Of a DNA stretch of 64,000 nucleotides, positions 31,840 to 58,027 are shown piece after piece; positions within the stretch are counted from its first letter, which is position 1, and each line of letters opens with the position of its first letter. This DNA is from an uncultured Alphaproteobacteria bacterium (GTDB taxonomy: Bacteria > Pseudomonadota > Alphaproteobacteria > Methylaequorales > Methylaequoraceae): assembly GCA_902537615.1 (NCBI GenBank), contig CACBBU010000002.1, forward strand, positions 75,334-139,333. Reading direction: 5' to 3'. The position numbers and the translations under genes are program-made. The notes under the pieces are model-generated. The model made no database searches. It saw only the letters and a program-made list of their open reading frames with translations, and was not told the origin of the DNA.

Positions 31840-32466
31840 ATGGGGAATTTAATAGATAAACTTAAAAAAGAAAAGCCAGCCTTTGTTGCTGAATTTGATG
31901 ATTTTGTTCAAAAAATTAGACTTGAAAATAATGATGAATTAGTTAATTTACATTCAACGATAAGTTCACTCAGAGATCAATTAGAAAATCAGCAATTTCT
32001 TAAGAATAAAGAAATTCAAGATGCAATCCTTCAAACAGCAGATGAAATTAAACAACTTCAATTAACAATTACCGAACAAAGAAATCAGTTAGATAAACTT
32101 AAGTTTGAAAAAAAAGAAGCAATTCAAAGAGAAATTCAGTTATCTACCGATGAAATTAAACAATTAAAAAAATCTTGTGTAGTATTGAGAGATGAACTTG
32201 AAAATTTAAAGTTTGATAAACAGGAATCAGTTCAAAAAGCTATTTTGGAATCAAGTCAAGAAATTAAAGAATTAAAATTATCTATTTCAGATTTAAGAAA
32301 TGAACTTGAAAGTCTGAAATTTGAAAAAAAAGAAGCTGTTCAAAATGCTGTACTTCAATCGAATAATGAGATTCAACAACTTAAATCCTCAAGTCAAAAA
32401 TTAAGAGAGGAAATAGAAAAAATAATAAAAAATTATGAAAATAAGCATAAAAAAGGTGATAAATGA
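31840..32466 (+). CDS. Coiled-coil protein with four 36-aa repeats
   Basis: KFEKKEAIQ...DEIKQL...LRDELENL unit repeated; ATGA overlap with the cyclase. Confidence 0.8.
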   Translation: MGNLIDKLKKEKPAFVAEFDDFVQKIRLENNDELVNLHSTISSLRDQLENQQFLKNKEIQDAILQTADEIKQLQLTITEQRNQLDKLKFEKKEAIQREIQLSTDEIKQLKKSCVVLRDELENLKFDKQESVQKAILESSQEIKELKLSISDLRNELESLKFEKKEAVQNAVLQSNNEIQQLKSSSQKLREEIEKIIKNYENKHKKGDK

Positions 32467-34775
32467 AAAATAATAAAAAACCTGAAGATATCAAAATTTT
32501 GCAGGCAGAAATTGATAGATCTAAATTATTATTAAATATTTCTAGAAAAATTGCCTCAATTAAAAATCTCTCAGAAATACTATGGACTATTGTAGAGTTT
32601 GTTACAACCAATGTTGACGCTGATAGAGGAACATTATTTTTAAATGATGAAGAAACCAATGAATTATATTCAAGAGTTGCTCAGGGAGATTTAACAAGAG
32701 AAATTAGAATTTTGAATACTGTTGGAATTGCAGGAGGTATTTTTCAATCTCAAGTTGGTGAAATTATTCATGATGTTTACTCAGATAAAAGGTTTAACAA
32801 AGATGTTGACCAGGAAACTGGTTATAAAACAAAAAATATGATTTGTTCGCCAGTAAGAACTGTCAATGGAAAAATAATCGGAGTAATTCAAGTCTTAAAC
32901 AAAAATAAAGGAAGGTTTACTAAAGATAATTTAGAATTTGTAAATTCAGTTGCTACGCAAGCGGCTGTTTCAATACAAAATGCTCAGAATAATGAATTTT
33001 TTGAAAAAAAACGAGCTCAGGAAATGGAGTTCATAAGTATTGTTTCAGATGTAACTGCTGAAATTGATTTAAGTGCACTTTTGAAAAGAGTAATGGAAGA
33101 AGCGACGAGAATGCTTAATGCTGATAGAGCTACATTATTCTTGAATGATGAAAAAACTAATGAACTTTTTTCAAGAGTAGCTATGGGGGAAGGTATGGGA
33201 GAAATAAGGTTACCCAACACAGCAGGTATTGCTGGAAGTGTTTTTACTTCTGGTAAAACCATGAATATACCTTACGCTTATGCTGATTTGAGGTTTAATC
33301 CAGCATTTGATAAACAAACTGGATATTTTACCAGATCAATTTTATGCGTACCTGTAGTTAATAAAAACGGAAAAGTTATAGGTTGCACTCAAGTATTAAA
33401 TAAAAAAGGTGGTAAATTTACTGAAGAGGATGAATCAAGATTAAAAGCTTTCACTCAACAAGTTGCAATTGCTCTTGAAAACGCAAAATTATTTGATGAT
33501 GTGTCAAAATCAAGAAAATATAATGAAAGCATGCTTTCTAGCATGTCAAATGGTGTTATAACAATTGATGGTGACGGAAAAATTGTAACATGTAATAAAT
33601 CTGGTCTTAAAATTTTTAAAGTAAATGATAAAAACTTGATTGGATTAGATTCAAATAAGTTTTTTATAGATGAAAATAAATGGATTGAAGAAAAAATTAA
33701 TTTAGTTAGAGATTCTAAAGAACCAGAACTGATTATGGATGCTGAAATAGATGTTTTAAATCACGAAACCGAAAAAAATGAAATTATTTCAGTTAACCTA
33801 ACGATCTTACCTTTAATAAATGAAGACAGTGATGGAAGAACCGATGAAAAGGAGAGTTTTCTAGGTATTTTATTAATGATTGAAGATATTTCCTCTGAAA
33901 AGAGAATGAAGTCTACAATGTCAAGGTACATGGATCCTGGTATTGCAGATCAATTACTTGAAGATGGTGCTGACATAATGGGGGGTCTTGACACAACCGC
34001 AACACTCCTATTTTCTGATTTAAGAAGTTTTACGAATATTACTGAGTCTTTGGGTGCCCAAGGTACAGTTAAACTTTTAAATGAATATTTTGAAATTATG
34101 GTTGAGTGTATATCTGAACAAGGAGGTATGCTTGATAAATTTATTGGAGACGCAATCATGGCAGCTTTTGGATTACCTATTTCTCATGAAGATGATGAGG
34201 ATAGGGGTGTTAAGGCTGGTATCAATATGATTAAAAGACTTTGGGATTGGAACGATCAGAGAGAAAAAGATGGAAAACCTCCACTAGACATGGGACTGGG
34301 ACTTAATACTGATAAAATTGTAGCTGGAAATATTGGTTCACAAAAAAGAATGGATTACACTATGATTGGTGATGGGGTTAACCTTGCGGCAAGGCTTGAA
34401 AGTGCATGCAAACAATATAATGCTAGGATTTTAATTAGTGATTTTACTTTTAAAAAACTCAAAGGAACTTACAGAATTAGGTATATTGATGATGTTGTTG
34501 TTAAAGGTAAGACCGAACCGGTTGGAGTTCATGAGGTATTAGATTATCATAACGAAAAAACCTTTCCTAATCTTATGGACGTGGTTAATCATTTTAATGA
34601 AGGAAGGAAAAAATACATCTCTGGTGATTTTGATCAAGCTGTAACCTCGTTTAAAGAATGCTTAAAGATTAACTCTGAGGACAAATTATCAGAAACTTAC
34701 ATTAACAGATGTAATCAACTCATTTCTGAAAAACCAAAAAATTGGGATGGAGTTTGGGTTATGAAAAGTAAATGA
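32463..34775 (+). CDS. Soluble class III adenylate cyclase, GAF-GAF-PAS-CYC-TPR-like
   Basis: Two GAF domains (ADRxTLFL, NK..F..D), FSDLRSFT, DKFIGDAIMA, DYTMIGDGVNLAARLES, C-terminal WDG motif. Confidence 0.92.
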   Translation: MKNNKKPEDIKILQAEIDRSKLLLNISRKIASIKNLSEILWTIVEFVTTNVDADRGTLFLNDEETNELYSRVAQGDLTREIRILNTVGIAGGIFQSQVGEIIHDVYSDKRFNKDVDQETGYKTKNMICSPVRTVNGKIIGVIQVLNKNKGRFTKDNLEFVNSVATQAAVSIQNAQNNEFFEKKRAQEMEFISIVSDVTAEIDLSALLKRVMEEATRMLNADRATLFLNDEKTNELFSRVAMGEGMGEIRLPNTAGIAGSVFTSGKTMNIPYAYADLRFNPAFDKQTGYFTRSILCVPVVNKNGKVIGCTQVLNKKGGKFTEEDESRLKAFTQQVAIALENAKLFDDVSKSRKYNESMLSSMSNGVITIDGDGKIVTCNKSGLKIFKVNDKNLIGLDSNKFFIDENKWIEEKINLVRDSKEPELIMDAEIDVLNHETEKNEIISVNLTILPLINEDSDGRTDEKESFLGILLMIEDISSEKRMKSTMSRYMDPGIADQLLEDGADIMGGLDTTATLLFSDLRSFTNITESLGAQGTVKLLNEYFEIMVECISEQGGMLDKFIGDAIMAAFGLPISHEDDEDRGVKAGINMIKRLWDWNDQREKDGKPPLDMGLGLNTDKIVAGNIGSQKRMDYTMIGDGVNLAARLESACKQYNARILISDFTFKKLKGTYRIRYIDDVVVKGKTEPVGVHEVLDYHNEKTFPNLMDVVNHFNEGRKKYISGDFDQAVTSFKECLKINSEDKLSETYINRCNQLISEKPKNWDGVWVMKSK

Positions 34776-35494
34776 GAAATTATCCTTTTGAAAAGAATTT
34801 TCCTTCAATATCCTATATTGCTAATAATTGGCCAAGATCTAAAAATGTTCTAAAAAAATTCATTCTTTCAAATCATAAATTACCTAATTTATATAACTTG
34901 TGTTTGAATTGTTTAAATGATTTGAACGTTCGTAAGATAGATAGAATGAAACCAGTCTTAAAGAAACTATCAGTCCTTTGTATTAAGAATGTAACTTATA
35001 ATACTTATCATGATTCACATCATTTTAAGTCGGTTATAATTATTTCATGTTTACTAGCAAAATTGTCAAAGTTGAAAAACAATGAAGATAGGTTCCTTTT
35101 AATAATAATTGCACTTACTCATGATTTAGGTCATTTGGGAAGAAGAATACAAAAAAGATCGTTTTTTCAAGAGGAAAAAAGTTTCACTGAGTTGAGCAGA
35201 ATTTTATTTAAAGCAAAACCAATTTCAAAAAATAACAAAAGAATAAAAAAAATATTCAGAAGCACATATTTTCCTATTAAACCAGAAAAAGTTGAAGATC
35301 ATGTAGAAAAAATAATTTTAGATGCAGATATTTTATCATCACTTATGTTTGGTTTAGATGTTGGTGTTCAATTTGCAAGCAGGTTAAAACATGAATTAAG
35401 ATTTGAAGGTGGAACTAAACAGTTATTTTCTGGCTTTTTGAAATTCCTTGATAATAAGTCTTTATATCTAGATTCATCAAAAAAATCGTGTTAA
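34772..35494 (+). CDS. HD-domain phosphohydrolase, class I cNMP-phosphodiesterase-like
   Basis: YHDSHH, HDLGHLG, DADI; ATGA overlap with the cyclase stop. Confidence 0.7.
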   Translation: MRNYPFEKNFPSISYIANNWPRSKNVLKKFILSNHKLPNLYNLCLNCLNDLNVRKIDRMKPVLKKLSVLCIKNVTYNTYHDSHHFKSVIIISCLLAKLSKLKNNEDRFLLIIIALTHDLGHLGRRIQKRSFFQEEKSFTELSRILFKAKPISKNNKRIKKIFRSTYFPIKPEKVEDHVEKIILDADILSSLMFGLDVGVQFASRLKHELRFEGGTKQLFSGFLKFLDNKSLYLDSSKKSC

Positions 35495-35561
35495 TGTTTA
35501 AAAAATATGTTATTTTGTCGTTATTTTATTCACAATATGCAGTCTGTGGGTAACTTTTGTT

Positions 35562-36896
35562 ATGAAGTTTTTAATATTATTAATATTTGCTCTATTTTTT
35601 GATTCTGCTCTTAGCCAGGAAGAACAAAACGCCACTCCAGAAATTGAGTATTTCAATTTAGATTCTGCACTTAAAAGTGTCTTGAGAAATCATAAAATGA
35701 TTAAAGCTACCAAAAATGATGTAGAAGCAGCGAAATTTAGGTTAAAACAGTCAAGAGGTGGTTTTTTTCCTTCCTTAGATGTTACAGCAAACTATGGTCA
35801 TGAAAATATTATAAAATATGGTGCTGGAAATAATACTCAATTAGCAGCTAGAGACGCTACTGCTAAGATCACTCAAACAATTACTGACTTCGGTCTTACA
35901 AGGTCAACAGTTAAAACATCAAAGTTGTCCCTTAAACAAACAAGAGCGATGGAAAACCAAATCAAGAATGATATCTTATTAAGAGCTATAACCGCTTACT
36001 TAAGAGTAATTCAGTCACGAGAGAGTGTAAAATACGCTGTTCAGTCAGTCGCTAATATTAAAAAACAAACAGAATTAGAAGATGCAGCAGTTACCGCTGG
36101 TGGCGGCCTAACATCTGACGTACTTCAAGCTAAAACTCAGTTAGCAGGAGCGCAAGCACGACAAATTCAATTTGAAGGTGTTTTATCTGCTGCAAGACAT
36201 GAATTTGAATATGTTTTTGAAAGTTTTCCAAAAAATTTAAATAGTCTTCTTCTTTTACAATCTGTTTTTGATTCTTTACCTAAATCTCTTGAAGAGGCTG
36301 AAAAACTTACATTAAAAAATAATCCTTCATTAATAGCTGCGAGAATTACTGAGGAAATTAGTAAGGAAGGGATTAATACTGCGAAAGCAACTTTATTTCC
36401 AACTATTAAAGGTATAATAAGTCATTCTGAAAAACAAGATTTTGGAGGTATAGTCGGATTTAAAAGAGAAAGTTCAGCAAAGGTTGATTTTTCTTATCCT
36501 CTTAATTTAAGTTTATCGGAATACGCTGGAAAAGAGGCTGCTGTTGAATCATACTTAGCAACGTCTACAAGAATAAGAGATCAAGAATCAATGATAAAAC
36601 AAATGCTTAGAACTACTTGGGATGGTTTGTTAACAGCCCAAAAAAATGCTCAATTTTTAACAAATCAGGCAAGAATATCAAATGAATTTTTAGAGCTTGC
36701 CAGAACCGAAAGAAAAGCTGGCAACCGTACACTTTTAGACGTTTTAAATGGTGAAACGGCATTTATTAATGCGCAAGCTGATGCAATAGGGGCAAAAATT
36801 GAAGTTTTAATAAATAGTTATACTTTGTTAAGTTTAATGGGGGGACTAACTTTAGAAAGTGTTAAGTTGATACAACCAAAAAACGTTGAAAACTAA
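35562..36896 (+). CDS. TolC-family type I secretion outer-membrane protein
   Basis: Signal peptide, two OEP repeats (FFPSLDV, LFPTIKG), GNRTLLDVLNGE. Confidence 0.9.
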   Translation: MKFLILLIFALFFDSALSQEEQNATPEIEYFNLDSALKSVLRNHKMIKATKNDVEAAKFRLKQSRGGFFPSLDVTANYGHENIIKYGAGNNTQLAARDATAKITQTITDFGLTRSTVKTSKLSLKQTRAMENQIKNDILLRAITAYLRVIQSRESVKYAVQSVANIKKQTELEDAAVTAGGGLTSDVLQAKTQLAGAQARQIQFEGVLSAARHEFEYVFESFPKNLNSLLLLQSVFDSLPKSLEEAEKLTLKNNPSLIAARITEEISKEGINTAKATLFPTIKGIISHSEKQDFGGIVGFKRESSAKVDFSYPLNLSLSEYAGKEAAVESYLATSTRIRDQESMIKQMLRTTWDGLLTAQKNAQFLTNQARISNEFLELARTERKAGNRTLLDVLNGETAFINAQADAIGAKIEVLINSYTLLSLMGGLTLESVKLIQPKNVEN

Positions 36897-36905
36897 TTTT
36901 GTTTA

Positions 36906-39900
36906 ATGTTAAAAGAAATTAACTTTACTAATAAATTAAACGATGGCTCATTTACTAGTAGTCCGCCAGAGATACTTAGCTTTTACTCAGGAAATTCACT
37001 TAAGATAGAAAACTTACCTTCATGGTTACCAAAATCTGATTTTTCTAGAAATAACAGTGACTTAATTGCAACATCTCATGATGGTGATCAGATTATACTT
37101 GTTGATTATTTTACTAATTTTGAATTACCATCATTGTTAACTGAAAACGGTTTACTTTTGAATGGCTCTCTTGTAAGGTCACTAGCTGGTCCCCTAGCTA
37201 AGGGGCAATACGCTCAAGCAACTGATGGTAATGTTCTTTCTATTGGTGAGGTTTCCACTGTTTCTGGTACGGCAAAAGCAACAAGATTAGATGGTACAAC
37301 TACCAATTTAAATGCGGGGGATCCAGTCTTTCAAGGTGATACTATTGAGACTGAAGGTTCAGGAGCTGTAGGTTTAGTTTTTTTAGATAAAACAACACTT
37401 TCTCTATCTGATGGAGGAAAGATGGTTTTAGATGAGTTAGTTTACGATGCAGCAACAGGAACGGGCAGTATAGCTGTTGATATGCTTGAAGGTGCTTTCA
37501 GTTTTGTTAGTGGTGAAATAGCCAAAACCGGACCTGACGCAATGTCAGTTAAAACACCAGTAGCAGTTATAGGTATTAGAGGAACAACTGTTGCTGGAAA
37601 GGCAGCTGTTGAAGGAAATGAAAACAGTTTTACTTTACTGCAAGATGCAGATGGAGGAGTTGGACAAATTGCTGTAAGTAACGATGGAGGCACACAAGTT
37701 TTAGCTCAGGTTGGTGCAACAACAAGTATTTCAAGTTTTACTGCTCCACCACCACCACCAGTAATTTTAACTACAGCACAAATTCAAGCCAATTATGGTA
37801 CTGCACTTAATGTGTTACCCCCAACGCCTGCTGTAGCACCACAGCCACAACCTGCACCACCTCCACAAGAACAAGTTCAGGAAGAACAGGCTCAAGAAGA
37901 AGCTGCTGAAGAGGAAGGTGAAGAAGAAGCCGGTGAAGAACAAGTAACTGAGGAAGGTCCTGCAGAAGAAGAAGGTGAAGGAGAAGGAGAAGAGGGTCCC
38001 CCTGAAGGAGAGGAAGGTCCACCAGTTGGACCTGATGGAGAACCTCTTGCTGAAGGTGAGGGTCCCCCTGAAGGAGAAGAAGGTGGTCCTCCTGAAGGTG
38101 AAGAAGGACCCCCTATTGGACCAGATGGAGAAGTATTAGCTGAAGGAGAAGGGGGTCCACCTCTTGGCCCAGATGGAGAACCGTTACCACCTGGAGAAGG
38201 GGGTCCTCCCGTAGGCCCAGATGGAGAACCATTGCCACCTGGTGAAGGAGGTCCACCTCTTGGCCCAGATGGAGAACCGTTACCACCTGGTGAAGGCGGC
38301 CCACCTCTTGGCCCGGATGGGGAACCATTACCACCTGGAGAAGCTGGCCCTGGTGGCCCTGGAGATTTTGGTCCTGGCGGTCCTGGCGGACCCGGAGATT
38401 TGGGTGGTCCTGGCGGACCATCGCCTGAACAAGAAGAAGTTGCAAGAGAAGCATTTGAAACAGCACTAGCCGATGGGTTAAGTCCAGAGCAAGCTATGGC
38501 AGCAGCTGCAGAAGCCGCTGGTCTTCCAGTTCCTCCTGGAGGCTTTGGACCTGGTGGGCCTGCTGGGCCTGGAGGTTTTGGACCTGGTGGCCCTGGAGAC
38601 TTTGGCCCTGGTGGTCCTGGTGGACCTGGTGGCCCTGGAGACTTTGGCCCTGGTGGCCCCGGAGACTTTGGCCCTGGTGGCCCTGGAGACTTTGGACCTG
38701 GTGGTCCTGGAGATTTTGGACCTGGCGGCCCTGGAGATTTTGGTGATCCTTTTGGTGGTCCTGGTGGATTTGGTGATCCCTTTGCTGGTCCTGGGGATTT
38801 TGGTGATCCTTTTGGTGGTCCAGGTGGCCCTGGTGGACCCGGTGACCCGTTTGGTGGCGGCCCTGATGGATTTGGTGATCCCTTTGGTGGTCCTGGAGGC
38901 CCTGGTGGACCCGGTGATCCGTTTGGTGGCGGCCCTGGTGGATTTGGTGATCCCTTTGGTAGTCCAGGAGGACCGGTTGGTTTAGGCGGCCCTGGTGGTC
39001 CTGGAGATTTTGGACCTGGTGGTCCTGGCGGTTTCGGTGGCCCTGGAGGTCCCGGAGATTTTGGTGGCCCTGGTGGCATGGTACCTGGACAATTTATGGG
39101 TGCTCAACCGCCTGGAACTGCAACATTTGCTCCAGCTGGAGCGTTTGGCTCCCCAATAGTTGGTTTTAGTTCAGGCCCTATTGGAGGTTTTGGCCCTGAT
39201 CCATATGGTGGTCCAATGAGTGGTCCAATGGGTGGTCCTGGAGGATTTGGTGACCCTTTTGGTGGTCCAATGGGAGGACCTGGAGGTTTTGGTGACCCTT
39301 TTGGTGGTCCAATGGGAGGACCTGGAGGTTTTGGTGATCCCTTTGGTGGCCCAATGGGAGGGCCTGGAGGTTTTGGACCTGATCCTTATGGAGGACCTGG
39401 AGGTTTTGGCCCTGATCCATTTGGTGGTCCTATGGGAGGACCCGGAGGTTTTGGTGATCCTTTTGGTGGACCTATGATGGGTGGTACTGAAAATTATGTT
39501 GAACCTATGAATTATTTTTTTGATGATCCTTCTCTATATATGGGTTTTTTCGAACCGGAACTTTTTGAAGTGGAAGAAAGTGGTGGTAGCGGAAGCGGAA
39601 GCGGAAGCGGAAGCGGAAGTGGAAACACTATTACTGGTACTAATAATGTTGACTCTGAAGATAAATCAACATCTACTGATGCATGGAAATTTCTTGGTTA
39701 TAGTGGAAATGATAATTTTAAAGGTGGTAGCGGGAATGATATATTTTTTGGAGGATTAGGAGCCGATGATTTAACTGGTAATGGAGGAAGTGATACCTAT
39801 TTCTTTTCTGATTTTCTTGAGGGTGCTGATACAATTAGGACGTTCAGTGCAGCTGATACTTTAAAATTTGGTTATAATTTTACAAATAATTATTCTCGAT

Positions 39901-40493: not shown

Positions 40494-40513
40494 AAAAAAA
40501 TAGTCTTTGCAGT

Positions 40514-44861: not shown

Positions 44862-44864
44862 ATT

Positions 44865-49463: not shown

Positions 49464-51827
49464 CTATTTACTTGTTGCAACGTAAACACCGTCCCAATCT
49501 TTTGGAGGAGGGGAGGTCTTAAATTCATCAATTCTTTGTTTCATTATTTCATAGTATTCATTCATTAAATTATTACAAAGATTTTTTGCCAAATCCATTT
49601 CATTTAAACACTTTTCCCATTCTTGTCTAAAGTAATTTTTTAGGATATTTTTATGCTTTTCTTCTAAAGTTTTAAACTCATTACTTTTTTTAAACTCTGA
49701 ATCACCAGCTAAAGTAAATATTGTTACAGCTTCTTTTTTTCCTTTAACAGCAATCATATCCAATTGTAATGTTGCATATAAATCTTTTACACTTTCGTTA
49801 GTTTCTGGACCAATTACTGTTTTTACACCATAGCTTTTTGATTGCCCCTCAAGTCTAGCAGCTAGATTAACAGAATCACCAAGAACTGAATAATCAAATC
49901 TCTGGTCAGATCCCATATTACCAACAACACACCCACCAGTGTTTAAACCAATACCAATCTTTAACTCTAAATATTTTTTATTTTCAGATTTCGCTTCCTT
50001 TTCTCTTTCAGCATTTAGATCCGCCATTACAGCATGCATTTTGAGAGTAGCATCACAGGCCATTTTTTCATGACCATCAACATCAATTGGAGCATTCCAA
50101 AAAGCCATAATACAATCTCCCATATATTTATCAATCGTGCCATTAACGTTGATAATTTCATTAGTAAGAGGTGTTAAGAATCTATTTATTAATTTAGTTA
50201 AACCTTGTGGATCCGATTTAAAAGATTCTGAAATAGTGGTAAATCCTCTTACATCACAAAATAAAAATGTCATTTTTTTAGTTTCCCCACCTAAAACTAA
50301 TTTATCAGGATCTTCTGCTAGTTGCTCTACCAATGCCGGAGAAAGATATTGTGAAAAAGCACCGCGAATCTGTTTTTTTTCGTTTGCATCTCTTAAATAG
50401 TTGGCAAAAGTGTTCCCAAAATATATTAAAAAAGTAGAAACACCTGCAAAAGTTGGGTCAAATAATGTTTTTTCTTCCAGAAAAAGCTTTAAACTTATAT
50501 AAAAAGCAGTGCTTATAACCGCGACCAATAAAGAAATATTTACAATCGGACCAAACCTAAGTGCTGATATTGTTATAAAGAACCCCAAAAGTATTGTAAA
50601 AATTCCTTCATAAAACTTCATATTTGTTCCAGATTTTAAGAAGGGAGAACCTGAAATTTTCACTTTATTTTTTTCATTTAGAGCCTCTTCTTCAGTCATT
50701 CCATTTTTAATTGCTTTCTTATACGCTATATCAGCATTCTTTGTGGAAGTATAAAATAATATAGCGGAGATTACTGTATCAATCAGATTAGCGTGTATTT
50801 CAACACCAGGCATTCTATCTTCAACAGGTGTAAACCTAATGTCTTTAAGACCTGTTGCTGATGTTCCAAGAATTCCTAACTTTCCCTGAAGTCTCTCTTT
50901 TCCAACTCTTCCTTTGATAATGTCTGCAGCACTGACATAATATCTTTTCTCTTTTTTAATAGAATCAGATTCACCATAATAAATCCAAACCCTTCCATTT
51001 TCATCTGTAGGAATTGCTGCATTACCAATTGCCTTTGTTTGAATTATAATTTCCTCAACACCGTTTATTCCAGTTCTTGTCGCAATACTGTTACCTTGAA
51101 ATGCAACTCTTATCATTTCTAGACCAAGTGTTGGTCTTACAGTTCCAGCAACATCTGAAATTAACGGTACACGTCTTATAATTCCATCTGGTTCTTCGGC
51201 AACAGACACAGTTCCTGCACCAGATGCTGCTTGCTCAAATTCAGTAACATTAGCCAATAATCCAGGATAGGTTATTAACCAATTTTTTGGATTCTTGTTT
51301 TTACCCAAAAAAACTTTAACAGAGGTATCTCTTATATCATCTCGTTCCGCATCACCAGTAACGTCAAGACCAGAGTGACCAATTACAGTCGGAAAGGTTT
51401 TCATAACATCTCTTGCAATAGACTCATTAGACGGAAGTTTCTTAAGAATATCAGCTACTTTTGGATTTCTTTTTTCTAGATCCCTTGCTATTAAAGTTGG
51501 GGATGTTCTGTCCTTTTCAGCAAATAATACATCTAGTCCAAGAACTAGCATACCAGATTCTTTGGACTTTTGAAAAAGCTCAGCTAAAACTGTTCTGGGC
51601 CAAGGCCATTGACCAATCTCTCGAAGTGACGCCTCATCAATATCAACTATTACAGAATAGGTTTGACCATCTGTAGATCTTGGGTATTTTTTTTGAAGTT
51701 GATCAAAATACTTTAGTCTCATTACTTCAACTACTTGCGGGTCAATAATCCTTACTCCACCTAAAATAATGGCCGCAATTATTGAAAGTAATGTAACTAT
51801 GAGTCTAAAACTTAATTTTAATTTCAT
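49464..51827 (-). CDS. CHASE2-domain membrane adenylate cyclase
   Basis: IVDIDEASL..IGQWPWPR, MPGVEIHAN, three TM helices, FCDVRGFT, DKYMGDCIMAFWNAP, GDSVNLAARLEG; ATG at 51827 lies 1 nt after the HlyD stop. Confidence 0.93.
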   Translation of the reverse strand: MKLKLSFRLIVTLLSIIAAIILGGVRIIDPQVVEVMRLKYFDQLQKKYPRSTDGQTYSVIVDIDEASLREIGQWPWPRTVLAELFQKSKESGMLVLGLDVLFAEKDRTSPTLIARDLEKRNPKVADILKKLPSNESIARDVMKTFPTVIGHSGLDVTGDAERDDIRDTSVKVFLGKNKNPKNWLITYPGLLANVTEFEQAASGAGTVSVAEEPDGIIRRVPLISDVAGTVRPTLGLEMIRVAFQGNSIATRTGINGVEEIIIQTKAIGNAAIPTDENGRVWIYYGESDSIKKEKRYYVSAADIIKGRVGKERLQGKLGILGTSATGLKDIRFTPVEDRMPGVEIHANLIDTVISAILFYTSTKNADIAYKKAIKNGMTEEEALNEKNKVKISGSPFLKSGTNMKFYEGIFTILLGFFITISALRFGPIVNISLLVAVISTAFYISLKLFLEEKTLFDPTFAGVSTFLIYFGNTFANYLRDANEKKQIRGAFSQYLSPALVEQLAEDPDKLVLGGETKKMTFLFCDVRGFTTISESFKSDPQGLTKLINRFLTPLTNEIINVNGTIDKYMGDCIMAFWNAPIDVDGHEKMACDATLKMHAVMADLNAEREKEAKSENKKYLELKIGIGLNTGGCVVGNMGSDQRFDYSVLGDSVNLAARLEGQSKSYGVKTVIGPETNESVKDLYATLQLDMIAVKGKKEAVTIFTLAGDSEFKKSNEFKTLEEKHKNILKNYFRQEWEKCLNEMDLAKNLCNNLMNEYYEIMKQRIDEFKTSPPPKDWDGVYVATSK

Positions 51828-51828
51828 T

Positions 51829-53562
51829 TTATGGCTCCGCAAAACTATTACCTAATGTCCTTATTAAAGGATAAATAAAATAGGTAATAAGTTTTCTTTT
51901 ACCAACTCTAAACTTTCCTGAAACCTTCATTCCTGGCATTAGATTAAATCCAGGCGGTGTGTCTTTCAGCTCATTTCCAGTGATTTGCGCTCTTGCTCTG
52001 TAAAAGTTACCGGAGTTTCCATCTACATCCTCATCTACTGTATCAGCAGAAACATAAATAAGTTTTCCTTTCAACTCTCCATGCTTTTGAGCTGGTAAGG
52101 CGTTTAATTGTATTTTAACTGATGTGTCAGGAATTAATTTACTTATATCAGATGGATCAACATCAAAAACAGTAAGTAACTCAACTCCTGTTGGAACAAG
52201 TGTTACTACACTTTTACCTTTGGTTATTACAGCGCCTGAATAAAGAGAATGAAGGTCTAGTACCATTCCGTCAGAAGGTGCCCTTACAATAACATCAGTT
52301 TGTCGCCTTTCCAGTTTCTTCAAGTCCTCTTGCATACTCATACGTTGATCCTCTAAGGAAACAAGTTCGTCATTTATTCCACCAAAAAACTGGCTTGTGT
52401 ATTCCTTTCTATTGGATTTAAGCTCACTAAGTTTATTACTTGTTTTGGTAAATTCCTTTTCTAAAGATAATCTTTTATTTTTTTCAGCTAAGACCTGTGA
52501 TTCAGCAACTAGATCTAAATCAAAAAGTTCTTTTTTTGAATTTTCAAGCTGCTTTTGAATATCCAACTGTTCCTTTACGTATTTTAAATCATCTTCTGTG
52601 GATGATATTTGTTGATCTAGAGATGCTTTTTTGGCTAAGTATTGATCTTTTTTGTCTTTAAAAATTTTATTTTGTCTTTCATCTTTAGGGTCGCTGACAC
52701 TAATACTCGTTCTTAGTAATGATTGCTTTTTTAATCTATCAATTTTTGAATTTATAACACTAAGCTGATAATTAAGTTTCATTCTATCAGCTTTCTGAAG
52801 GGTTGAATCAAAAGTGAGAAGAGCTTCTCCTTTTTTTATGCTTTGTCCTTTTTTAACATAGATATCTTTAACAACTGAATCAAAGTTTGATTGAACTTCA
52901 ACATTCGGAACAATTGTTGTTATTTTTCCTGATGCAGTAATTGTTGTATCTACTTCAGAGATAGATCCCCACAGAATTAAAAAAAAAACTAAAAAAGCAA
53001 AAGAGTATACGGAATATTTTACAGATTTAGGGACAGCTTTAGATTTTATTCTATCAATATCGTCATCAAATTCATCTAATAACTCATTCATCAATTCAGA
53101 ATTAACTTTTTTCTTCTTTTCTTCTTCGGATAATTCTTTTTTATCGTTATCTTCATCAACCTGGCTAGAATCTGAATCAGAACTGAAAGCATCAACTGAC
53201 AGTTTTTCATTAGCATTTCTTGCGTAGCTTGCTAATTGTTGCATCATATTAAAAGCTGTTTGAGGAGAGTTTTTTAGGTAACCTAATAATGCATCTTTAT
53301 CTATTTCTTTAACTACTGCCTCATCAACAGCTCTAGCCATTGCACTTCTAGGTTGTTTATCTATTAAGGCCATTTCACCAAAAAGAGCATTTTTTTCTAA
53401 AATTGAAAGTGTTACATATTCGTCACCATTAAACTTACAAACTTCAATTTTTCCTTTGACAACTTGGTAAGCATAATCACCTACCTCACCCTCTCTAAAT
53501 AGAACATCTCCAGCAGCTAAATTTCTTAATGCGGGTTGTGTAGTTTTTTTCTGTTTACTCAT
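51829..53562 (-). CDS. cNMP-binding domain fused to HlyD-family membrane fusion protein
   Basis: N-terminal LFREGEVG and FGEMALIDKQPRSA; acidic linker; TM helix; RAPSDGMV, LMPGMKVSG, GKRKLITYFIYP. Confidence 0.9.
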   Translation of the reverse strand: MSKQKKTTQPALRNLAAGDVLFREGEVGDYAYQVVKGKIEVCKFNGDEYVTLSILEKNALFGEMALIDKQPRSAMARAVDEAVVKEIDKDALLGYLKNSPQTAFNMMQQLASYARNANEKLSVDAFSSDSDSSQVDEDNDKKELSEEEKKKKVNSELMNELLDEFDDDIDRIKSKAVPKSVKYSVYSFAFLVFFLILWGSISEVDTTITASGKITTIVPNVEVQSNFDSVVKDIYVKKGQSIKKGEALLTFDSTLQKADRMKLNYQLSVINSKIDRLKKQSLLRTSISVSDPKDERQNKIFKDKKDQYLAKKASLDQQISSTEDDLKYVKEQLDIQKQLENSKKELFDLDLVAESQVLAEKNKRLSLEKEFTKTSNKLSELKSNRKEYTSQFFGGINDELVSLEDQRMSMQEDLKKLERRQTDVIVRAPSDGMVLDLHSLYSGAVITKGKSVVTLVPTGVELLTVFDVDPSDISKLIPDTSVKIQLNALPAQKHGELKGKLIYVSADTVDEDVDGNSGNFYRARAQITGNELKDTPPGFNLMPGMKVSGKFRVGKRKLITYFIYPLIRTLGNSFAEP

Positions 53563-53563
53563 T

Positions 53564-55729
53564 TTAAACAGCCTTTTTAAAAATTTTATGTGATGAAGAT
53601 TCGCCTAAAATAGAACTTTGTTTTTTATAAGTTTCACTAAAAAAGCCTGGTTCATTCTTCAAACTTTCAAACGAACCTTGCTGAGAAATTTTCCCATTAT
53701 CTAAAACAAAAATTTTATTACAAAGTCTTAAATGATAAAGCCTATTCGACACAATAACCACAGTTCTTCCTAAAGCAATATCAGGTAAGCCATCATAAAG
53801 TTTAATTTCACTATCTACATCAAATCCACTCATTGCATCATCAAGAATCAATATTCTTGGATTTCTAATTAACGCTCTTGCAATAGCAAATTTTTGTCTT
53901 AAGCCAGTAGAAATATTTGATGCATTTTCTTCTAAAAAAGTCTCATAAGCATCTGGAAATGATTCAATTTCTTCATGAGCAAAAACTTTTTTTGTAGCCC
54001 AAGTAATTCTATCCATTGAAGAGTTTGGCATTGGTCTAGAAATGTTTTCTCTAATTGTTCCAGGAAAGAAATAGCTTTCTGCACCTACTAAAGACACTTG
54101 AGATCTTATGTGACTTAAATCGAGTAATCTTAAGTCTATGTTATCAAGTCCCACAATACCAGATTGCGGTCTATATAAACCTTGAATTAATTTTGCCATT
54201 GTACTCTTACCGCAACCACTTTTCCCAGTGATTCCAACTATTTGTCTTGGATCAATATCTAAATCTATTTCTTTTAGAATTTTCGTTTCATCATCATAAC
54301 CAAACTCAACCTTTTTAAAATTAATTTGTCCCATTAACTGTGGTTTTTGACCTCTAACAGTTGTCTCAGAATTAGCGTCGACAATACCTGAAACGATTTG
54401 TAATGACTGAACTAATTTTCCTATTTCAGTTTTTAAGGTTACCAAATCAATGATTGGTCTAGAAACTCTACCTGCAAGCATATTAAAACCAACTAAAATA
54501 CCAGCCGAAAGACCTCCTGAAAAAACTAAATGTACACCAACAAAAATGACCATTGCTGTCATTAATTGATTGATAGTGGAGGTTATATTGTTTAAAACAG
54601 AAGATCTTTTTTGCATTTCATCAGAAGCAACTATATAATTAGCTTCTATATCCCTCCATTGGTCTTTTAGGCCTGGTTCCAATGCTAAACCCTTAACATT
54701 TTCAATTCCATTAACACAAACTGAAATAAACTCTTGTCTTTGAGCGTCAGCTTTAGCGAGCCCACCCATTGCGTCTCTTTGTTTTTTTGAATAAAACATT
54801 GAAGCAAGCGCACCTAACAAACTAAAAAATAAAACAACCCCAAATAGAAGCGGACTATAAAAAAAAAGAATTGGAACGAAAACTAAGAGACTTATTGAAT
54901 CTAATCCTGTTGAGAGAATTTTTTGAGTTAATAATGTTTTAATTTGACTGATTTGTGAAGTAAATCTTCTAAAACTCAAAGATTCTCTGTGAAATCTTTG
55001 CATGGGTAAACTTACTAATTTTTCAAAAACTCTCACAGATAGTTTTGCTTCAATTTTTTGAGATAAAAAGTCAAGTAAATAAGACTTTAGGTACCCAAGG
55101 ATTCCATTGAAAATATAAGCAACTACAACACCTGAAGTTATTACATATAACGTAGAGTAAGCCTCATAGTTTACAACCTTATCTAAAACTAGCATCATAA
55201 AAACCGCAGGAATAACTGCAAAAATATTAAGAATTAATGCTACAATAACAACTTGGACAACAACTGATTTATTTCTAAATGATTCTCCAATTAACCACCC
55301 AATTTTAAGCTCACTTGTTTCTTCAAAAATCTTTAATTTAGCTTTCAATAGTACTACAGAACCATCCCAGCCTTTACGTAATTCCTTTAAAGATATTTGT
55401 TGAGGTTTTGGATTTGATATACCAGCGTCTAAACAAAGAATAGATTTTTCATCCTCATTCGTAATCGCTCGCAAGGCAATAATATATCTTCCATTTTTTA
55501 GTTTTAATATTTGCTGTTTTTTTGTTAGAAGCTTTAAGAGTTCATTTTCACTTATTTTTGCAGCTTTTGCTTTTAAGTCAAAAGACTTAGCTAGTTCACA
55601 CATTTCTTTTAGAGATAGTTCTCTATCATCTATTTTAAATCTTTCAGGAATATCATTTGGTCCGATATGAATACCCAATTGTCTAGCAACAAGAATTAAT
55701 GATTTTTGAGAACCACGTATAGCTTCCAT
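53564..55729 (-). CDS. HlyB-type T1SS ABC transporter with inactive C39-like domain (degenerate NBD)
   Basis: C39-like region lacks catalytic Cys/His (SQKSL, GRYII); LVLDKVV TMD; GKSGCGKST; ISTGL; ILDDA; SNRL. Confidence 0.9.
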   Translation of the reverse strand: MEAIRGSQKSLILVARQLGIHIGPNDIPERFKIDDRELSLKEMCELAKSFDLKAKAAKISENELLKLLTKKQQILKLKNGRYIIALRAITNEDEKSILCLDAGISNPKPQQISLKELRKGWDGSVVLLKAKLKIFEETSELKIGWLIGESFRNKSVVVQVVIVALILNIFAVIPAVFMMLVLDKVVNYEAYSTLYVITSGVVVAYIFNGILGYLKSYLLDFLSQKIEAKLSVRVFEKLVSLPMQRFHRESLSFRRFTSQISQIKTLLTQKILSTGLDSISLLVFVPILFFYSPLLFGVVLFFSLLGALASMFYSKKQRDAMGGLAKADAQRQEFISVCVNGIENVKGLALEPGLKDQWRDIEANYIVASDEMQKRSSVLNNITSTINQLMTAMVIFVGVHLVFSGGLSAGILVGFNMLAGRVSRPIIDLVTLKTEIGKLVQSLQIVSGIVDANSETTVRGQKPQLMGQINFKKVEFGYDDETKILKEIDLDIDPRQIVGITGKSGCGKSTMAKLIQGLYRPQSGIVGLDNIDLRLLDLSHIRSQVSLVGAESYFFPGTIRENISRPMPNSSMDRITWATKKVFAHEEIESFPDAYETFLEENASNISTGLRQKFAIARALIRNPRILILDDAMSGFDVDSEIKLYDGLPDIALGRTVVIVSNRLYHLRLCNKIFVLDNGKISQQGSFESLKNEPGFFSETYKKQSSILGESSSHKIFKKAV

Positions 55730-55765: not shown

Positions 55766-55801
55766 AAAAAAAACCCCCTGTAAATAATACAGAGGGTTTT
55801 T
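55766..55801 (-). terminator. Rho-independent terminator after the 252-aa gene
   Basis: On + reads AAAAACCC-C-CTGTA-AATAA-TACAG-A-GGGTTTTT; the T-run follows on the minus strand. Confidence 0.8.
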
Positions 55802-55836: not shown

Positions 55837-56595
55837 TTAGACTACATCGTCAGTTGGATCATCAGGTGGTGGAGGCGGAGCCATTCCGTCGCCATCCATA
55901 TCCGCTCCTGGAGGAGGTCCTTCGGGTCCTTCGGGTCCTGGTCCATGATGTGCACCTGCATCATCCATATGAGAGTGCATTCCTCCCATATCGTCGCCTG
56001 GTGGTCCCATTGGTCCATCTGGTCCTGGTCCCATATCCCCTGGAGGTGGTCCCATTGGTCCATCAGGTCCCATCATTGGATCGCCTGGAGGTGGTCCTCC
56101 TGGATCACCTGGAGGTGGTCCGCCTGCTGGTCCATCTGGTCCAAATAATGGATCTGGTCCACCTGGTCCCATATCCCCTGGAGGTGGTCCCATTGGTCCG
56201 TCTGGTCCTGGTCCCATATCTCCTTCAGGAGGTGGTCCCATTGGTCCATCAGGTCCTGGTCCCATATCCCCTGGAGGTGGTCCATCACCAAATGCGGCAT
56301 CAACACTTTCGCCTGCTGCTTCAAAAGCTTGCATGGCGTCCATACCACTGTCAATAGCTGTGTCAAAACCTTCTTGAGCGGCGCTAGCCATGGTATCAAC
56401 CATTTCTGGAGGAGCACCCATATCAGTCATAGCTGCACCTGCTGCTTCAATTGCTGCGGATGCTGCTGCTGATGGATCAGCTCCGCCTTCAATTGCTGCA
56501 GTGTATGCGTCCTCAGCTGCAGTTCCAGCGGCATCTTCCATGGCATCAATTTGATCTTCAGTCATGCCTTCGGGCATGCCCATTTCTTCGGCCAT
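55837..56595 (-). CDS. Highly acidic Ala-rich then Gly/Pro/Met/Asp-rich protein (252 aa), putative T1SS cargo
   Basis: SD AGAAGGA 7 nt before the ATG; own promoter and terminator; lies between TolC and ABC genes. Confidence 0.8.
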   Translation of the reverse strand: MAEEMGMPEGMTEDQIDAMEDAAGTAAEDAYTAAIEGGADPSAAASAAIEAAGAAMTDMGAPPEMVDTMASAAQEGFDTAIDSGMDAMQAFEAAGESVDAAFGDGPPPGDMGPGPDGPMGPPPEGDMGPGPDGPMGPPPGDMGPGGPDPLFGPDGPAGGPPPGDPGGPPPGDPMMGPDGPMGPPPGDMGPGPDGPMGPPGDDMGGMHSHMDDAGAHHGPGPEGPEGPPPGADMDGDGMAPPPPPDDPTDDVV

Positions 56596-56690: not shown

Positions 56691-56701
56691 CAAAAAATTT
56701 A

Positions 56702-58027
56702 CTATAGTTTTAAATATTGAAAATTCAGAAGACCACATTGATTTAGAAGTTCAAATGAAGATAAAATTAACTGAAATTGAGCATTAACTAAATTTGATTC
56801 TGATTGAGTAAGTTCTTTTTCGGCATCAAGAATGTTTAGAGTTGTACGTGTTCCTACACCCGCCTCTTTAGTTACTCCCTCTACAGCCATCAAATTTGAT
56901 TCTACTGATAATTTTAATGACCCAATACTTGATTTAGTACTTTCAATTTTTTTCCATGTTGATTGAATCTGAAACATTAAATCCAGCTTTTTAGATTCAA
57001 GAGATTTAAAAGTAGAAATTGCTGAATTTTTGGATTTTTCTAAATTATAAAAATTGTGTCCTTTATTAAAAATCGGTAATGAGACAGAGGCGGTAACTTC
57101 ATAACTATCCTTTCTTTCAAGAATTCTAGATGATTTAAGAGACTTGCCAACTGAACCACTAACAGAAAATTCAGGTGCAAAATTTAAACGACTTTTTTTT
57201 ATATCAAACTTAGAATTTTCGTGTACAAATTTAAGTTGAATAAAATCGGGGTTATTTTTTAAACCAATTTCAAGTGATTCTTTAAGAGAAGATGGTATTT
57301 TTGGTATATCACCAAACTTTGACCAATCCTTAGGGTTTGAGTTTGTTATAGTTTCCTCATTGGTATCAAACCAGTTAATTTTTGGCTCTCTTCCAACGAC
57401 AGTTTTAAAATCTGATATTGAAATATCTAAATTATTTTCGGATTCAATTCTCTTTGAGGTTGCTTCAGCTAAACGAGCTTTTGCTTGAAAAACATCAGTT
57501 TTTGTTACATCTCTGAACTCAAATCTTTTTTCAGTTGCTTCTAACTTTTTAATTAAGTTTTCCTCATTTTTTTTTGATACATCAAGTAAAAAATAATCCT
57601 TTAAAACTGTATAATAAGCTTTACTTGCTCTGAATAAAACAGACTGAGTAACAGATTGATCTTTGAGTTGAGAGATTTTAAGATTATTTCTTGATTGTTT
57701 GAGTGTAACCATTTTTTCATAACTCAATGGTTGTGTTAAATCTATATCAAAAGTTGTTGGGCTTAGAGTTGTATCACCGCGATTAGATGTATCAGGAAAA
57801 CTTCGGCTTATATTTCTTCCTTGTGAAGATGAAAACTCTAGAGAAGGGAGAAAATCAGTCTTTGAAATCTGGAGGTCTTTTTTCGCATTTTCAAGATCTT
57901 TTTTGCTTTTTTGAATATCTGGAAAAAAATTATAAGCATCTCTTAAAACATCGCCTAGTTCTTCGGCTTCAGAAAAAGTGGTAAAAAGCAATAGAAATAA
58001 AAGTAAAAGTTTATAACTGCCATTCAT
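56702..58027 (-). CDS. TolC-family type I secretion outer-membrane protein
   Basis: Signal peptide, FLPSLEF, TKTDVFQAKARL, GTRTTLNILDAE. Confidence 0.9.
   Translation of the reverse strand: MNGSYKLLLLFLLLFTTFSEAEELGDVLRDAYNFFPDIQKSKKDLENAKKDLQISKTDFLPSLEFSSSQGRNISRSFPDTSNRGDTTLSPTTFDIDLTQPLSYEKMVTLKQSRNNLKISQLKDQSVTQSVLFRASKAYYTVLKDYFLLDVSKKNEENLIKKLEATEKRFEFRDVTKTDVFQAKARLAEATSKRIESENNLDISISDFKTVVGREPKINWFDTNEETITNSNPKDWSKFGDIPKIPSSLKESLEIGLKNNPDFIQLKFVHENSKFDIKKSRLNFAPEFSVSGSVGKSLKSSRILERKDSYEVTASVSLPIFNKGHNFYNLEKSKNSAISTFKSLESKKLDLMFQIQSTWKKIESTKSSIGSLKLSVESNLMAVEGVTKEAGVGTRTTLNILDAEKELTQSESNLVNAQFQLILSSFELLNQCGLLNFQYLKL

Follow-up and report, generated by a model that had tools for sequence, protein, structure and literature searches.

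Type I secretion systems (T1SSs) are known to be controlled mainly through transcription or, for LapA-type adhesins, through proteolysis governed by cyclic di-GMP (c-di-GMP). We analysed a 64,000-nucleotide stretch of DNA from an uncultured alphaproteobacterium of the family Methylaequoraceae (contig CACBBU010000002.1 of assembly GCA_902537615.1; hereafter the window), in which about 26 kb carry two T1SS-like gene sets together with genes predicted to make, degrade and bind cyclic AMP (cAMP). This locus contains 18 genes, eight on the plus strand (A1 to A8, 31840-46142) and ten on the minus strand (B1 to B10, 58027-46145), according to the map of open reading frames (ORFs). It can be read as one composite signalling-and-export system made of known parts, a reading to which we give a probability of about 0.5. 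The minus arm belongs to a widespread and apparently undescribed T1SS-like cassette, composed of a polyanionic protein free of Lys and Arg, an ATP-binding cassette (ABC) protein with a degenerate ATPase, and an HlyD-type adaptor fused to a cyclic nucleotide-binding (cNMP) domain. The gene arrangement is more than chance, because both class III cyclases of the genome lie in this locus and because the list of parts recurs in other lineages. With a cNMP receptor in its HlyD adaptor, a secretion machine would be switched directly by a second messenger; here the receptor is paired with ABC proteins lacking ATP-hydrolysis residues and with a cargo devoid of positive charge (B2). Marine metagenomes contain the host family in abundance, and SAR116, Rhodospirillales and Magnetococcales share parts of the locus, which offers an entry to three questions: what role cAMP plays in bacteria without CRP, what is sensed by CHASE2 proteins together with FecR partners, and whether a T1SS-like conduit could function without hydrolysing ATP.

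In the E. coli haemolysin system (HlyB-HlyD-TolC/HlyA), as in our locus, the C39-like domain of the ABC protein lacks its Cys, the channel is of the TolC family, and the substrate (in our locus a presumed one), which has no Sec signal, is encoded beside the pump; in both cases HlyD has a cytoplasmic N-terminus, one transmembrane (TM) segment and a periplasmic body. In assemblies of the HlyB/HlyD type, the N-terminal domain of HlyD sits beside the cytoplasmic domains of the ABC protein and is required for substrate-triggered assembly. As opposed to the E. coli system, the HlyD found here includes a complete cNMP domain, the ABC protein lacks the Q-loop Gln, the LSGGQ signature, the catalytic Glu and the switch His, and the presumed cargo is a polyanion without Lys, Arg or RTX repeats; the ABC and TolC proteins also score below the NCBIfam T1SS cut-offs.

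The plus arm resembles the LapA-LapBCE system of Pseudomonas fluorescens, with its LapD and LapG proteins, and the adhesin MpIBP of Marinomonas primoryensis. A module shared by A5 and A6 is homologous to the MpIBP domain of PDB entry 5ix9, and, like LapA and MpIBP, both proteins contain a flexible linker rich in Gly as well as a predicted C-terminal RTX/secretion region. As in the LapA system, a second messenger is implicated in the post-translational control of a T1SS surface protein, in our case by prediction. In contrast to LapA and MpIBP, A5 and A6 are far shorter, with disordered acidic Gly/Pro repeats as their main component; the signalling parts are those of cAMP and not of c-di-GMP, and the ABC protein A7 has no C39-like domain. 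LapG (PF06035) had no match in the host genome, whose assembly is 79% complete (LapD was not searched for), and the LapG site [TAP]AA[GV] was not found in A5 or A6. The locus is therefore not a Lap-type c-di-GMP system.

Precedents also exist for the cAMP-related genes. A cluster in Campylobacterota combines a CHASE2 adenylate cyclase, a phosphodiesterase (PDE), a FecR-domain protein and a TPR protein (PMC9239204), cyaD1 of S. meliloti adjoins the gene of the FecR-domain protein SMc02177 (PMC5498481), and a CHASE2 kinase of Burkholderia occurs with a LysM-FecR protein (PMC5192318). By gene content alone, the four kinds of the Campylobacterota cluster are all represented in our locus, as a CHASE2 cyclase, a PDE-like HD protein, FecR-fold proteins and a Sel1/TPR protein at the edge. 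In contrast to that cluster and to cyaD1-smc02177/smc02178, the FecR-fold proteins are here presumed T1SS substrates with a pump of their own, and they are merged with a second T1SS whose adaptor is a predicted cNMP receptor, with no CRP/Clr-type regulator. In 2002, Kanacher et al. reportedly described the GAF-GAF-PAS-cyclases CyaB1 and CyaB2 of Anabaena as switches that are activated by the cAMP they make. The cyclase A2 arranges its domains in the identical order and has a motif of the NKFDE type in the second of its GAF domains, but it comes from a different phylum and is dispensable, A1 and A2 being jointly missing in 3 of 9 family genomes.

The cyanobacterial NHLP/Nif11 exporters (TIGR03896, TIGR03794/6/7) likewise tie cNMP domains to an ABC/HlyD export set, and the TIGR03896 'bacteriocin-type transport-associated' cNMP protein is the nearest precedent for the fusion protein B4. 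However, B4 matches TIGR03896 and TIGR03794 weakly, far below the cut-offs (31 versus 161 bits), as do all scores obtained with the NHLP families; moreover the C39 domain is here not a peptidase, a polyanion of 250-480 aa takes the place of the leader-peptide bacteriocin as cargo, and a TolC protein is present. In the SbtA/SbtB pair, a P-II-like protein binds adenine nucleotides including cAMP. The DUF1538 protein of the locus, B8, recalls UmpAB, a two-component DUF1538 Na+(Li+,K+)/H+ antiporter of Halomonas (PMC5484666), in having two DUF1538 repeats and a P-II-family gene next to it. In B8 the repeats are fused in one protein, as opposed to UmpAB, and a second, remote P-II-like gene follows. 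Each of the families, the CHASE2/FecR/PDE/TPR grouping, the retention-module adhesins and T1SSs in general are already known. In the searchable literature we found no description of a cNMP receptor fused to HlyD, of its partnership with ATPase-degenerate C39-like ABC proteins and Lys/Arg-free cargo, or of such a cassette merged with a retention-module T1SS and a whole cAMP-synthesis set; nor was a cAMP-T1SS link, or a cAMP system of this kind in SAR11/Pelagibacter, found there.

A first-pass annotation of the region had proposed two convergent gene runs meeting at 46142/46145, and the ORF map bears this out, the runs ending 2 nt apart. All 18 genes lie where it had placed them, and nearly every domain that it had named was confirmed, as judged from the ORF map, Pfam and NCBIfam. 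The tight spacing is also real: neighbouring genes are separated by -14 to +107 nt, the exception being 254 nt between A5 and A6. The combination of two predicted cAMP-making enzymes, one probable eraser and three predicted readers with two T1SS-like sets was confirmed, and we agree that each component family was known separately. Other descriptions had to be narrowed. The first gene, A1, called a coiled-coil gene, does contain repeats but gives only weak matches to coiled-coil families. The Pfam domain FecR was found in both proteins announced as FecR-RTX cargo, RTX repeats in A5 alone. Among the two proteins called P-II-like, B9 belongs to Pfam P-II, whereas B10 has no Pfam match and is remotely P-II-like. 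The two T1SS sets had been called complete; the HlyD and TolC families are indeed represented in both, but the term needs a caveat because both ABC ATPases lack the canonical catalytic motifs.

The two secretion sets

The minus arm includes B4 (51829-53562, minus strand; 577 aa), in which a cNMP-binding domain (Pfam, 69.3 bits) is fused to HlyD (TIGR01843, 218.5 bits for a cut-off of 208.65). In this protein a cNMP domain with the cassette FGEMALIDKQPRSA is followed by an acidic linker, a TM segment (about residues 181-203) and a full HlyD body. The adjacent gene B3 (53564-55729, minus strand) encodes an HlyB-type ABC exporter of 721 aa with a C39-like domain (TIGR01846, 494 bits for a cut-off of 725.55). 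The first 43 residues of B3 contain no Cys; the C39-like domain thus lacks its catalytic Cys, and the protein therefore resembles HlyB and not a bacteriocin peptidase. Its nucleotide-binding domain (NBD) has an intact Walker A motif but no Q-loop Gln, a signature reading ISTGL, a Walker B motif reading ILILDDA (Glu to Asp) and an H-loop reading VSNR (His to Asn). B3 is 71-94% identical across nine family genomes, and the degenerate states of B3 and of its plus-arm counterpart A7 are conserved in all nine.

The presumed cargo, B2 (55837-56595, minus strand), is a polyanionic protein of 252 aa without family match and corresponds to the acidic cargo protein of the first-pass annotation. It has no Lys, Arg, Asn, Cys or Trp, is made of 20% Asp+Glu, 21% Gly, 21% Pro and 10% Met, and ends with ...DDPTDDVV. 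B2 has less than 1% Lys+Arg, which holds for no other of the genome's 1004 ORFs with a length of 150 aa or more; both residues are absent from 7 of 7 family sequences, that of the window included, and from 12 of 15 counterparts outside the family. Signal peptides were found in none of A5, A6 and B2, and all three proteins have acidic C-termini. A terminator-like hairpin (55769-55801, minus strand), with a 14-bp stem and a T run, lies between the B2 and B3 genes. Such hairpins between substrate and pump genes are the usual way to overproduce the substrate, and the one observed here fits a substrate predicted to be made in excess over its pump. A match to TTGAAA-16-TAGAAT was seen at 56690-56663, upstream of the B2 gene. 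Promoter scans gave numbers at chance level for AT-rich DNA (67 versus 54.5±7.8; 58 versus 53.8±8.1) and were discarded, the hairpin alone being retained. The outermost gene of the minus arm, B1 (56702-58027, minus strand), encodes a TolC-family outer-membrane channel (Pfam OEP, 163.9 bits for a cut-off of 22; TIGR01844, 208.2 bits for a cut-off of 225.15).

In the plus arm, A5 (36906-40259, plus strand) is a T1SS-type surface protein of 1117 aa that consists of a FecR N-module, an acidic Gly/Pro-rich repeat linker, RTX repeats (25.5 bits for a cut-off of 23, with GGSGND and GGLGAD at residues 940-954) and a C-terminal domain. A6 (40514-43213, plus strand; 899 aa) is its paralogue, with the same N-module and C-terminal domain and without RTX repeats. 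The N-terminal region of about 270 aa common to both proteins matched PDB entry 5ix9 in a profile comparison (E 5.7e-9); its score with NF033682 was 26 bits for a cut-off of 50. The AlphaFold2 model of the N-module (predicted local distance difference test, pLDDT, 81.8) retrieved the C-terminal cell-surface-signalling domain (CCSSD) of PupR, a FecR-type regulator (6ovk, E 4e-5), with Foldseek, superposed on 5ix9 with a TM-score of 0.76 and a root-mean-square deviation of 0.9 Å over 61 columns, and also superposed on a FecR-family anti-sigma protein. Entry 5ix9 is the domain that anchors the Marinomonas ice-binding adhesin to the cell surface, and it has served as template in modelling the retention module of LapA (bioRxiv 10.1101/198937). 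As modelled, the N-module is both FecR-like and LapA-plug-like. Both descriptions would point to a periplasmic protein-interaction domain that stays inside while the rest of A5 or A6 threads out.

The exporter gene of the plus arm, A7 (43275-44861, plus strand), encodes an ABC protein of 528 aa without the N-terminal C39-like domain. Its NBD is degenerate as well (signature LSKGV, Walker B IIDDP, H-loop FSDND), with Walker A intact, and its best NCBIfam matches are T1SS ABC families, far below their cut-offs (206 versus 693.1). The set is completed by the HlyD-family membrane fusion protein A8 (44865-46142, plus strand; TIGR01843, 300 bits for a cut-off of 208.65) and the TolC-family channel A4 (35562-36896, plus strand; Pfam OEP, 177.4 bits for a cut-off of 22; TIGR01844, 189.7 for a cut-off of 225.15). 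The plus arm probably exports one or two RTX-type proteins and keeps them tethered in its TolC. An island of 52% G+C at 38-40 kb, in a genome of about 27% G+C, is due to the tandem Gly/Pro/Glu-rich repeats inside A5. An antisense ORF at 37892-39079 (minus strand; 395 aa, rich in Pro, Gly and Ser) was rejected as a gene and is a mirror artefact of the Gly/Pro codon repeats of A5.

Predicted cAMP enzymes and receptors

Two class III cyclases were found by searching the 79%-complete genome, and both lie in the locus. A2 (32463-34775, plus strand; 770 aa) has a GAF-GAF-PAS-Guanylate_cyc architecture (Pfam Guanylate_cyc, 79.3 bits), with the catalytic segments FSDLRSFT, KFIGDA and MDYTMIGDGVNLAAR; the NKFDE-type motif of the second GAF domain (GAF-B) reads NKKGGKFTEEDE. 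B5 (49464-51842, minus strand; 792 aa) combines a CHASE2 sensor (162.6 bits) with a Guanylate_cyc domain (65 bits), with the catalytic segments FCDVRGFT, KYMGDC and FDYSVLGDSVNLAAR, and its conservation across the family is 65-95%. Both proteins retain the two metal-binding Asp, the ATP-specifying Lys/Asp pair and the transition-state Asn and Arg; A2 and B5 are therefore predicted adenylate cyclases. A2 is CyaB1-like and, by analogy with Anabaena, probably self-amplifying. The gene A1 (31840-32466, plus strand), which overlaps the start of the A2 gene, encodes a protein of 208 aa with repeats of about 37 aa and the weak coiled-coil matches discussed above.

A family-specific insertion was seen in B5 at residues ~365-405 (window 50690-50770, minus strand), just before the second membrane segment. 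It is kept in the family and contains a helix-Gly-helix motif, AYKKAIKNGMTEEEAL, similar to one in the linkers of A5 and A6 and in B2. A regular expression for the helical motif had genome-wide matches solely in A5, A6 and the CHASE2 insertion, the expression having been written after the matches were known. As a meaningful link between these proteins the motif is unproven and was set aside, the pattern aromatic-xx-A-L-xx-G-x-S/T-x-E-E-A being that of a generic helix cap.

The first-pass annotation had proposed the HD gene A3 (34772-35494, plus strand; 240 aa; Pfam HD, 25 bits) as a PDE-like candidate eraser of cAMP. A profile built from A3 and its family orthologues supports the assignment: all 60 listed PDB matches were class I PDE catalytic domains, the best with E 6.3e-5. 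Residues H80, H84, H117, D118, H121 and D186 are invariant in the family, within motifs such as YHDSHH and HDLGH. The AlphaFold2 model was poor (pLDDT 65); its top 46 Foldseek matches were nevertheless all PDEs, with weak E values (0.04 or above). The protein is 240 aa long as compared to about 270 aa for the class I PDE core (YHN..H ... HD..H.G ... D), and Pfam PDEase_I was not reported for it. It is reasonable, though not proven, to regard A3 as the likely cAMP eraser.

Besides B4, the locus encodes two predicted readers, the stand-alone cNMP-binding proteins B6 (49020-49460, minus strand; 146 aa; Pfam, 60.1 bits) and B7 (48556-49023, minus strand; 155 aa; 60.5 bits), both without helix-turn-helix (HTH) domain. 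The phosphate-binding cassette of B7 is canonical (FGELALLLNQKRSAT, FGELALLLNQKRSA), and B4 and B7 both keep the FGE...R-S-A pattern, whereas B6 has the variant ERKAS, with RKAS in place of R[ST]A. Nine cNMP_binding domains were counted in the genome, three in the locus and six elsewhere. Outside the locus, a ZIP-like metal transporter (469-aa open frame; contig C18:~4.7-6.1 kb) has a complete cNMP domain inserted in a cytoplasmic loop and is a further predicted non-transcriptional target of cAMP. A type II NADH dehydrogenase-like flavoprotein (537-aa open frame; contig C3:~7.2-8.8 kb) carries a C-terminal cNMP domain, and four small stand-alone cNMP proteins are encoded on C1, C2:12216, C7 and C37, the last one having the same C-terminal helix as B6 and B7.

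The absence of a CRP-type HTH regulator, noted for the locus in the first-pass annotation, extends to the 79%-complete genome: PF13545 was not found there, the sole match lying below the cut-off (13.4 bits, E 0.09). Nor was it found in 4 of 5 near-complete family genomes. In G006 (93% complete, 2% contamination) a CRP-type HTH scored above the Pfam cut-off (C95:2849-3043, 47 bits, in a 245-aa frame). Because no CRP-type HTH was found, the predicted cAMP must act in this lineage on proteins, post-translationally, and not via CRP.

Recurrence of the parts and weighing of the explanations

Within the family, gene order is the same along the whole locus in at least 13 genera, and conservation is higher in its signalling genes than in the flanks. 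The genomes differ, informatively, in copy number, with one or two FecR genes and one or two small cNMP genes. Family synteny was rejected as evidence of linkage because it is uninformative when unrelated flanking genes are collinear too. A search of the whole library yielded full-length cNMP-HlyD fusions in about 40 distinct clusters (<50% identity). Taking one genome per species and a subset of 8 of 34 diverse fusions as query, a scan found carriers mainly in Thalassospiraceae, Rhodospirillales, Magnetococcales, Magnetovibrio, SAR116 and MarineAlpha3, in metagenome-assembled genomes (MAGs) and single-amplified genomes, and in a few further MAGs labelled as other phyla. Several of the MAG-derived loci are short or contain ambiguous bases; the loci outside the family are not phylogenetically independent, and their counts are raw numbers. 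Across the 34 diverse fusions, the ligand-contact residue G70 is invariant and E71, R80 and A82 are conserved in at least 90%. A B3-type C39-like ABC gene lies directly upstream of cNMP-HlyD in nearly all loci outside the family. At 14 of them, from several orders, the ABC gene is preceded by that of an acidic protein of 109-441 aa rich in Gly, Pro, Ala and Met, with alike C-termini in all cases and without Lys or Arg in 11 of 14. In the same scan, all 16 ABC proteins beside a plain HlyD had the canonical Q-loop, LSGGQ, DE and His, whereas about 34 of 43 beside cNMP-HlyD were degenerate in signature and Q-loop, and often in the Walker B Glu or the switch His too.

Other combinations of the parts were also observed. 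In SAR116 (L121 and L122) the cargo gene is followed by those for ABC, cNMP-HlyD, CHASE2 cyclase and, last, a FecR protein with signal peptide. In the Rhodospirillaceae MAG TMED23 (G323), an A4-type TolC gene, two FecR-module genes (50% and 47% identical to A5), an A7-type ABC gene and an A8-type HlyD gene occupy one strand, next to a divergent set with a Lys/Arg-free protein, a CRP-like gene, a B3-type ABC gene and cNMP-HlyD; the two secretion sets are thus neighbours, in a relative orientation opposite to that of the window. A second locus of G323, also present in G326, groups a CHASE2 cyclase with an A1-like coiled-coil gene that precedes an A2-like GAF cyclase, and in G323 a B6-like cNMP gene precedes the CHASE2 cyclase. 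A2 is 71-72% identical to the GAF cyclases of these two genomes. Exactly one CHASE2 protein was found in each of the 4 other cassette genomes tested. Among 20 CHASE2-cyclase loci from other alphaproteobacterial families, 4 had ABC and HlyD genes (with or without TolC) and 4 a FecR-domain gene, one of which, in G066, encodes a 1429-aa RTX protein with an A5-type N-module. The first-pass annotation had made its proposal depend on the modules being linked in related genomes. Linkage is kept for both T1SS sets, for the cyclase/cNMP set, and for CHASE2 with FecR or T1SS genes (see also PMC9239204 and PMC5498481), but the DUF1538/P-II module is self-standing elsewhere, and four cassette genomes searched beyond the family gave no HD/PDE-like gene.

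In the composite system that we propose, the CHASE2 cyclase would sense the periplasm and make cAMP, and the cytosolic GAF cyclase would amplify the signal where it is present. cAMP would bind the cNMP domains of HlyD, beside the nucleotide-binding and C39-like domains of the ABC protein, and would gate the engagement or passage of the polyanionic cargo without a transcriptional step. The periplasmic FecR-fold modules of tethered A5 and A6, perhaps with the Sel1 protein encoded at the edge of the locus, would be partners or input of CHASE2, and the state of the surface proteins would thereby be coupled to cAMP synthesis. The PDE-like A3 would reset the signal, while the small cNMP proteins and the P-II-like pair may act on other targets, possibly the DUF1538 transporter as a neighbouring ion-transport module. 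We consider it rather probable that cAMP would directly control the minus-arm machine. An input of the FecR modules to the cyclase, suggested by the recurrent FecR-CHASE2 adjacency, is a tentative proposal against which the odds lean somewhat, and the feedback of secreted cargo on the cyclases claimed in the first-pass annotation is plausible but less well supported than the control of secretion. A further possibility is that the polyanion cassette is a T1SS-derived machine of a new class without ATP-paid translocation, in which the inside-negative membrane potential and/or outside cations would pull the chain, cAMP on the adaptor would act as gate, and the Met/His/Asp-rich polyanion would serve abundant ocean bacteria as an extracellular or surface cation (metal) sponge; we regard this elaboration as unlikely.

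Proton-channel genes were seen near some of the related loci. In a Magnetovibrio MAG (L076, 12042-13649), a MotB/OmpA-like and MotA/ExbB-like pair lies directly beside the cNMP-HlyD cassette, and a similar pair, read from sequence only, adjoins a CHASE2-cyclase/ABC/HlyD locus of another alphaproteobacterium (L041:3122-4607). These pairs hint at a possible coupling to the proton-motive force.

Several observations speak against a composite system, and the genes could instead be independent neighbours (an adhesin T1SS, a second T1SS, cell-wide cAMP enzymes, and an ion transporter with P-II) that are adjacent through frozen gene order in this streamlined family. In the flanks, the UmuC, DUF192 and hypothetical genes keep their order across the family just as the locus itself does. 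The DUF1538/P-II genes occur without the rest of the locus, in the fused form in G119 and G186 and with split DUF1538 in G164. Most cNMP-HlyD loci outside of the family have no cyclase nearby, many CHASE2 cyclases have neither T1SS nor FecR neighbours, and 9 of the 20 CHASE2-cyclase loci contain no other part at all; at G066, no T1SS was found within 20 kb of the RTX adhesin/CHASE2 pair. Four other cassette genomes yielded no PDE-like gene, in a search without positive control outside the family. Finally, six other cNMP proteins are scattered in the genome, and the predicted cAMP signal is therefore genome-wide and not private to the locus. Frozen order is however difficult to reconcile with the reassembly of the parts in other orders and orientations in SAR116 (L121/L122), G323 and L076, and with a cNMP domain that is covalently part of HlyD. 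The FecR-CHASE2 pairing, moreover, recurs across phyla, and the signalling genes are better conserved than the flanks. We consider mere neighbourhood improbable on these grounds.

The degenerate ABC ATPases also weigh against the composite reading, as they cast doubt on export itself and on its energy source. The T1SS-like sets could instead be trans-envelope scaffolds for signalling or tethering, which would hold their proteins permanently and relay binding, shear or cations to CHASE2, with cAMP as output. The loss of signature, Q-loop, Walker B Glu and H-loop His in both ABC proteins, strictly conserved in that state, would agree with such a role, as would an N-module with the fold of FecR/PupR signalling domains and of the LapA/MpIBP plug, and the failure to find a LapG protease or cleavage site for protein release. 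Walker A is nevertheless intact in both ABC proteins, for which reason nucleotide binding is likely. The cargo genes occupy typical T1SS positions, their products have acidic C-termini, and the terminator suggests high expression; a cNMP receptor on HlyD also makes more sense as an input of the machine than as a mark of its output. Purely scaffolding sets thus appear quite unlikely. The ligand of a cNMP domain, lastly, is not readable from sequence, and the cNMP-type domains could sense another ligand or none, their adjacency to cyclases being coincidental. Domains of the cNMP_binding type are reused for other ligands in the CRP/FNR superfamily, B6 deviates from the R[ST]A consensus, and the scarcity of adjacent cyclases at fusion loci outside of the family would fit this view. 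However, the FGE...R-S-A cassette kept by B4 and B7 is near-invariant across diverse fusions, both cyclases have the ATP-specifying Lys/Asp pair, and the single CHASE2 protein recurs in 4 of 4 other cassette genomes, and we hold it to be very unlikely that these domains do not sense cAMP.

A pair of CHASE2-cyclase and FecR genes was also noticed in phages. Among 50,697 records, both genes were present only in Pelagibacter phage HTVC008M and Methylophilales phage Melnitz. The phage cyclase is full-length and 29-32% identical to B5; the FecR gene product is 33-34% identical to the A5 N-module, and the two genes are ~2 kb apart (KC465899.1 / NC_020484.1: 12041-13795 and 9617-10156; also MZ577095-98). 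Curli modules with FecR plus a cyclase have been described in pelagiphages (PMC9599517). These phages may tap or manipulate the same CHASE2-FecR pathway.

The DUF1538/P-II module and the edges of the locus

The minus arm ends with three genes whose relation to the remainder of the locus is less clear. B8 (46806-48518, minus strand) is a fused double-DUF1538 membrane protein of 570 aa (Pfam DUF1538, 357.8 bits, in two stretches of one polypeptide) and is a candidate UmpAB-like cation/proton antiporter. B9 (46441-46803, minus strand) belongs to the P-II family (Pfam P-II, 29.5 bits for a cut-off of 25), and its profile matched P-II proteins in the PDB with E 6.3e-5. The last gene of the arm, B10 (46145-46441, minus strand), encodes a 98-aa protein that always lies behind the P-II gene; although it has no Pfam match, hhalign aligned it to B9 with a probability of 77% (E 1.9e-5). 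In three loci of Rhodospirillaceae/Magnetovibrio MAGs (L068, L076 and L102), B10 is conserved beside DUF1538/P-II and the module adjoins a cNMP-HlyD cassette. The fused DUF1538 and P-II proteins are 66-72% identical to those of our locus there, while the adjacent ABC and cNMP-HlyD proteins are only ~31% identical. This high identity suggests either a very strong constraint or a horizontal transfer of the transporter module. The first-pass annotation had cAMP acting post-translationally on both secretion and transport. For secretion the proposal has gained support, one reader being fused to the adaptor; for transport, the link of DUF1538/P-II to cAMP is positional only and is the weakest of all, and we consider it doubtful that the module belongs functionally to the system.

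The locus makes up ~2% of a streamlined genome of ~1.2-1.6 Mb. On its left, it is preceded by a UmuC-type translesion polymerase gene (IMS, IMS_C, DUF4113; 28309-29649, plus strand), followed by small unmatched ORFs and then by a gene for a DUF192 protein (31307-31813). Having no relation to the locus, these genes delimit it on the left. At the other end, a gene divergent from B1 and just beyond the 18 genes (58265-58906, plus strand) encodes a Sel1/TPR-repeat protein (Pfam Sel1, 79 bits). It is probably an extra member of the locus, and homologues of it were found near two of the 20 CHASE2-cyclase loci, L038 and L040, both with T1SS genes.

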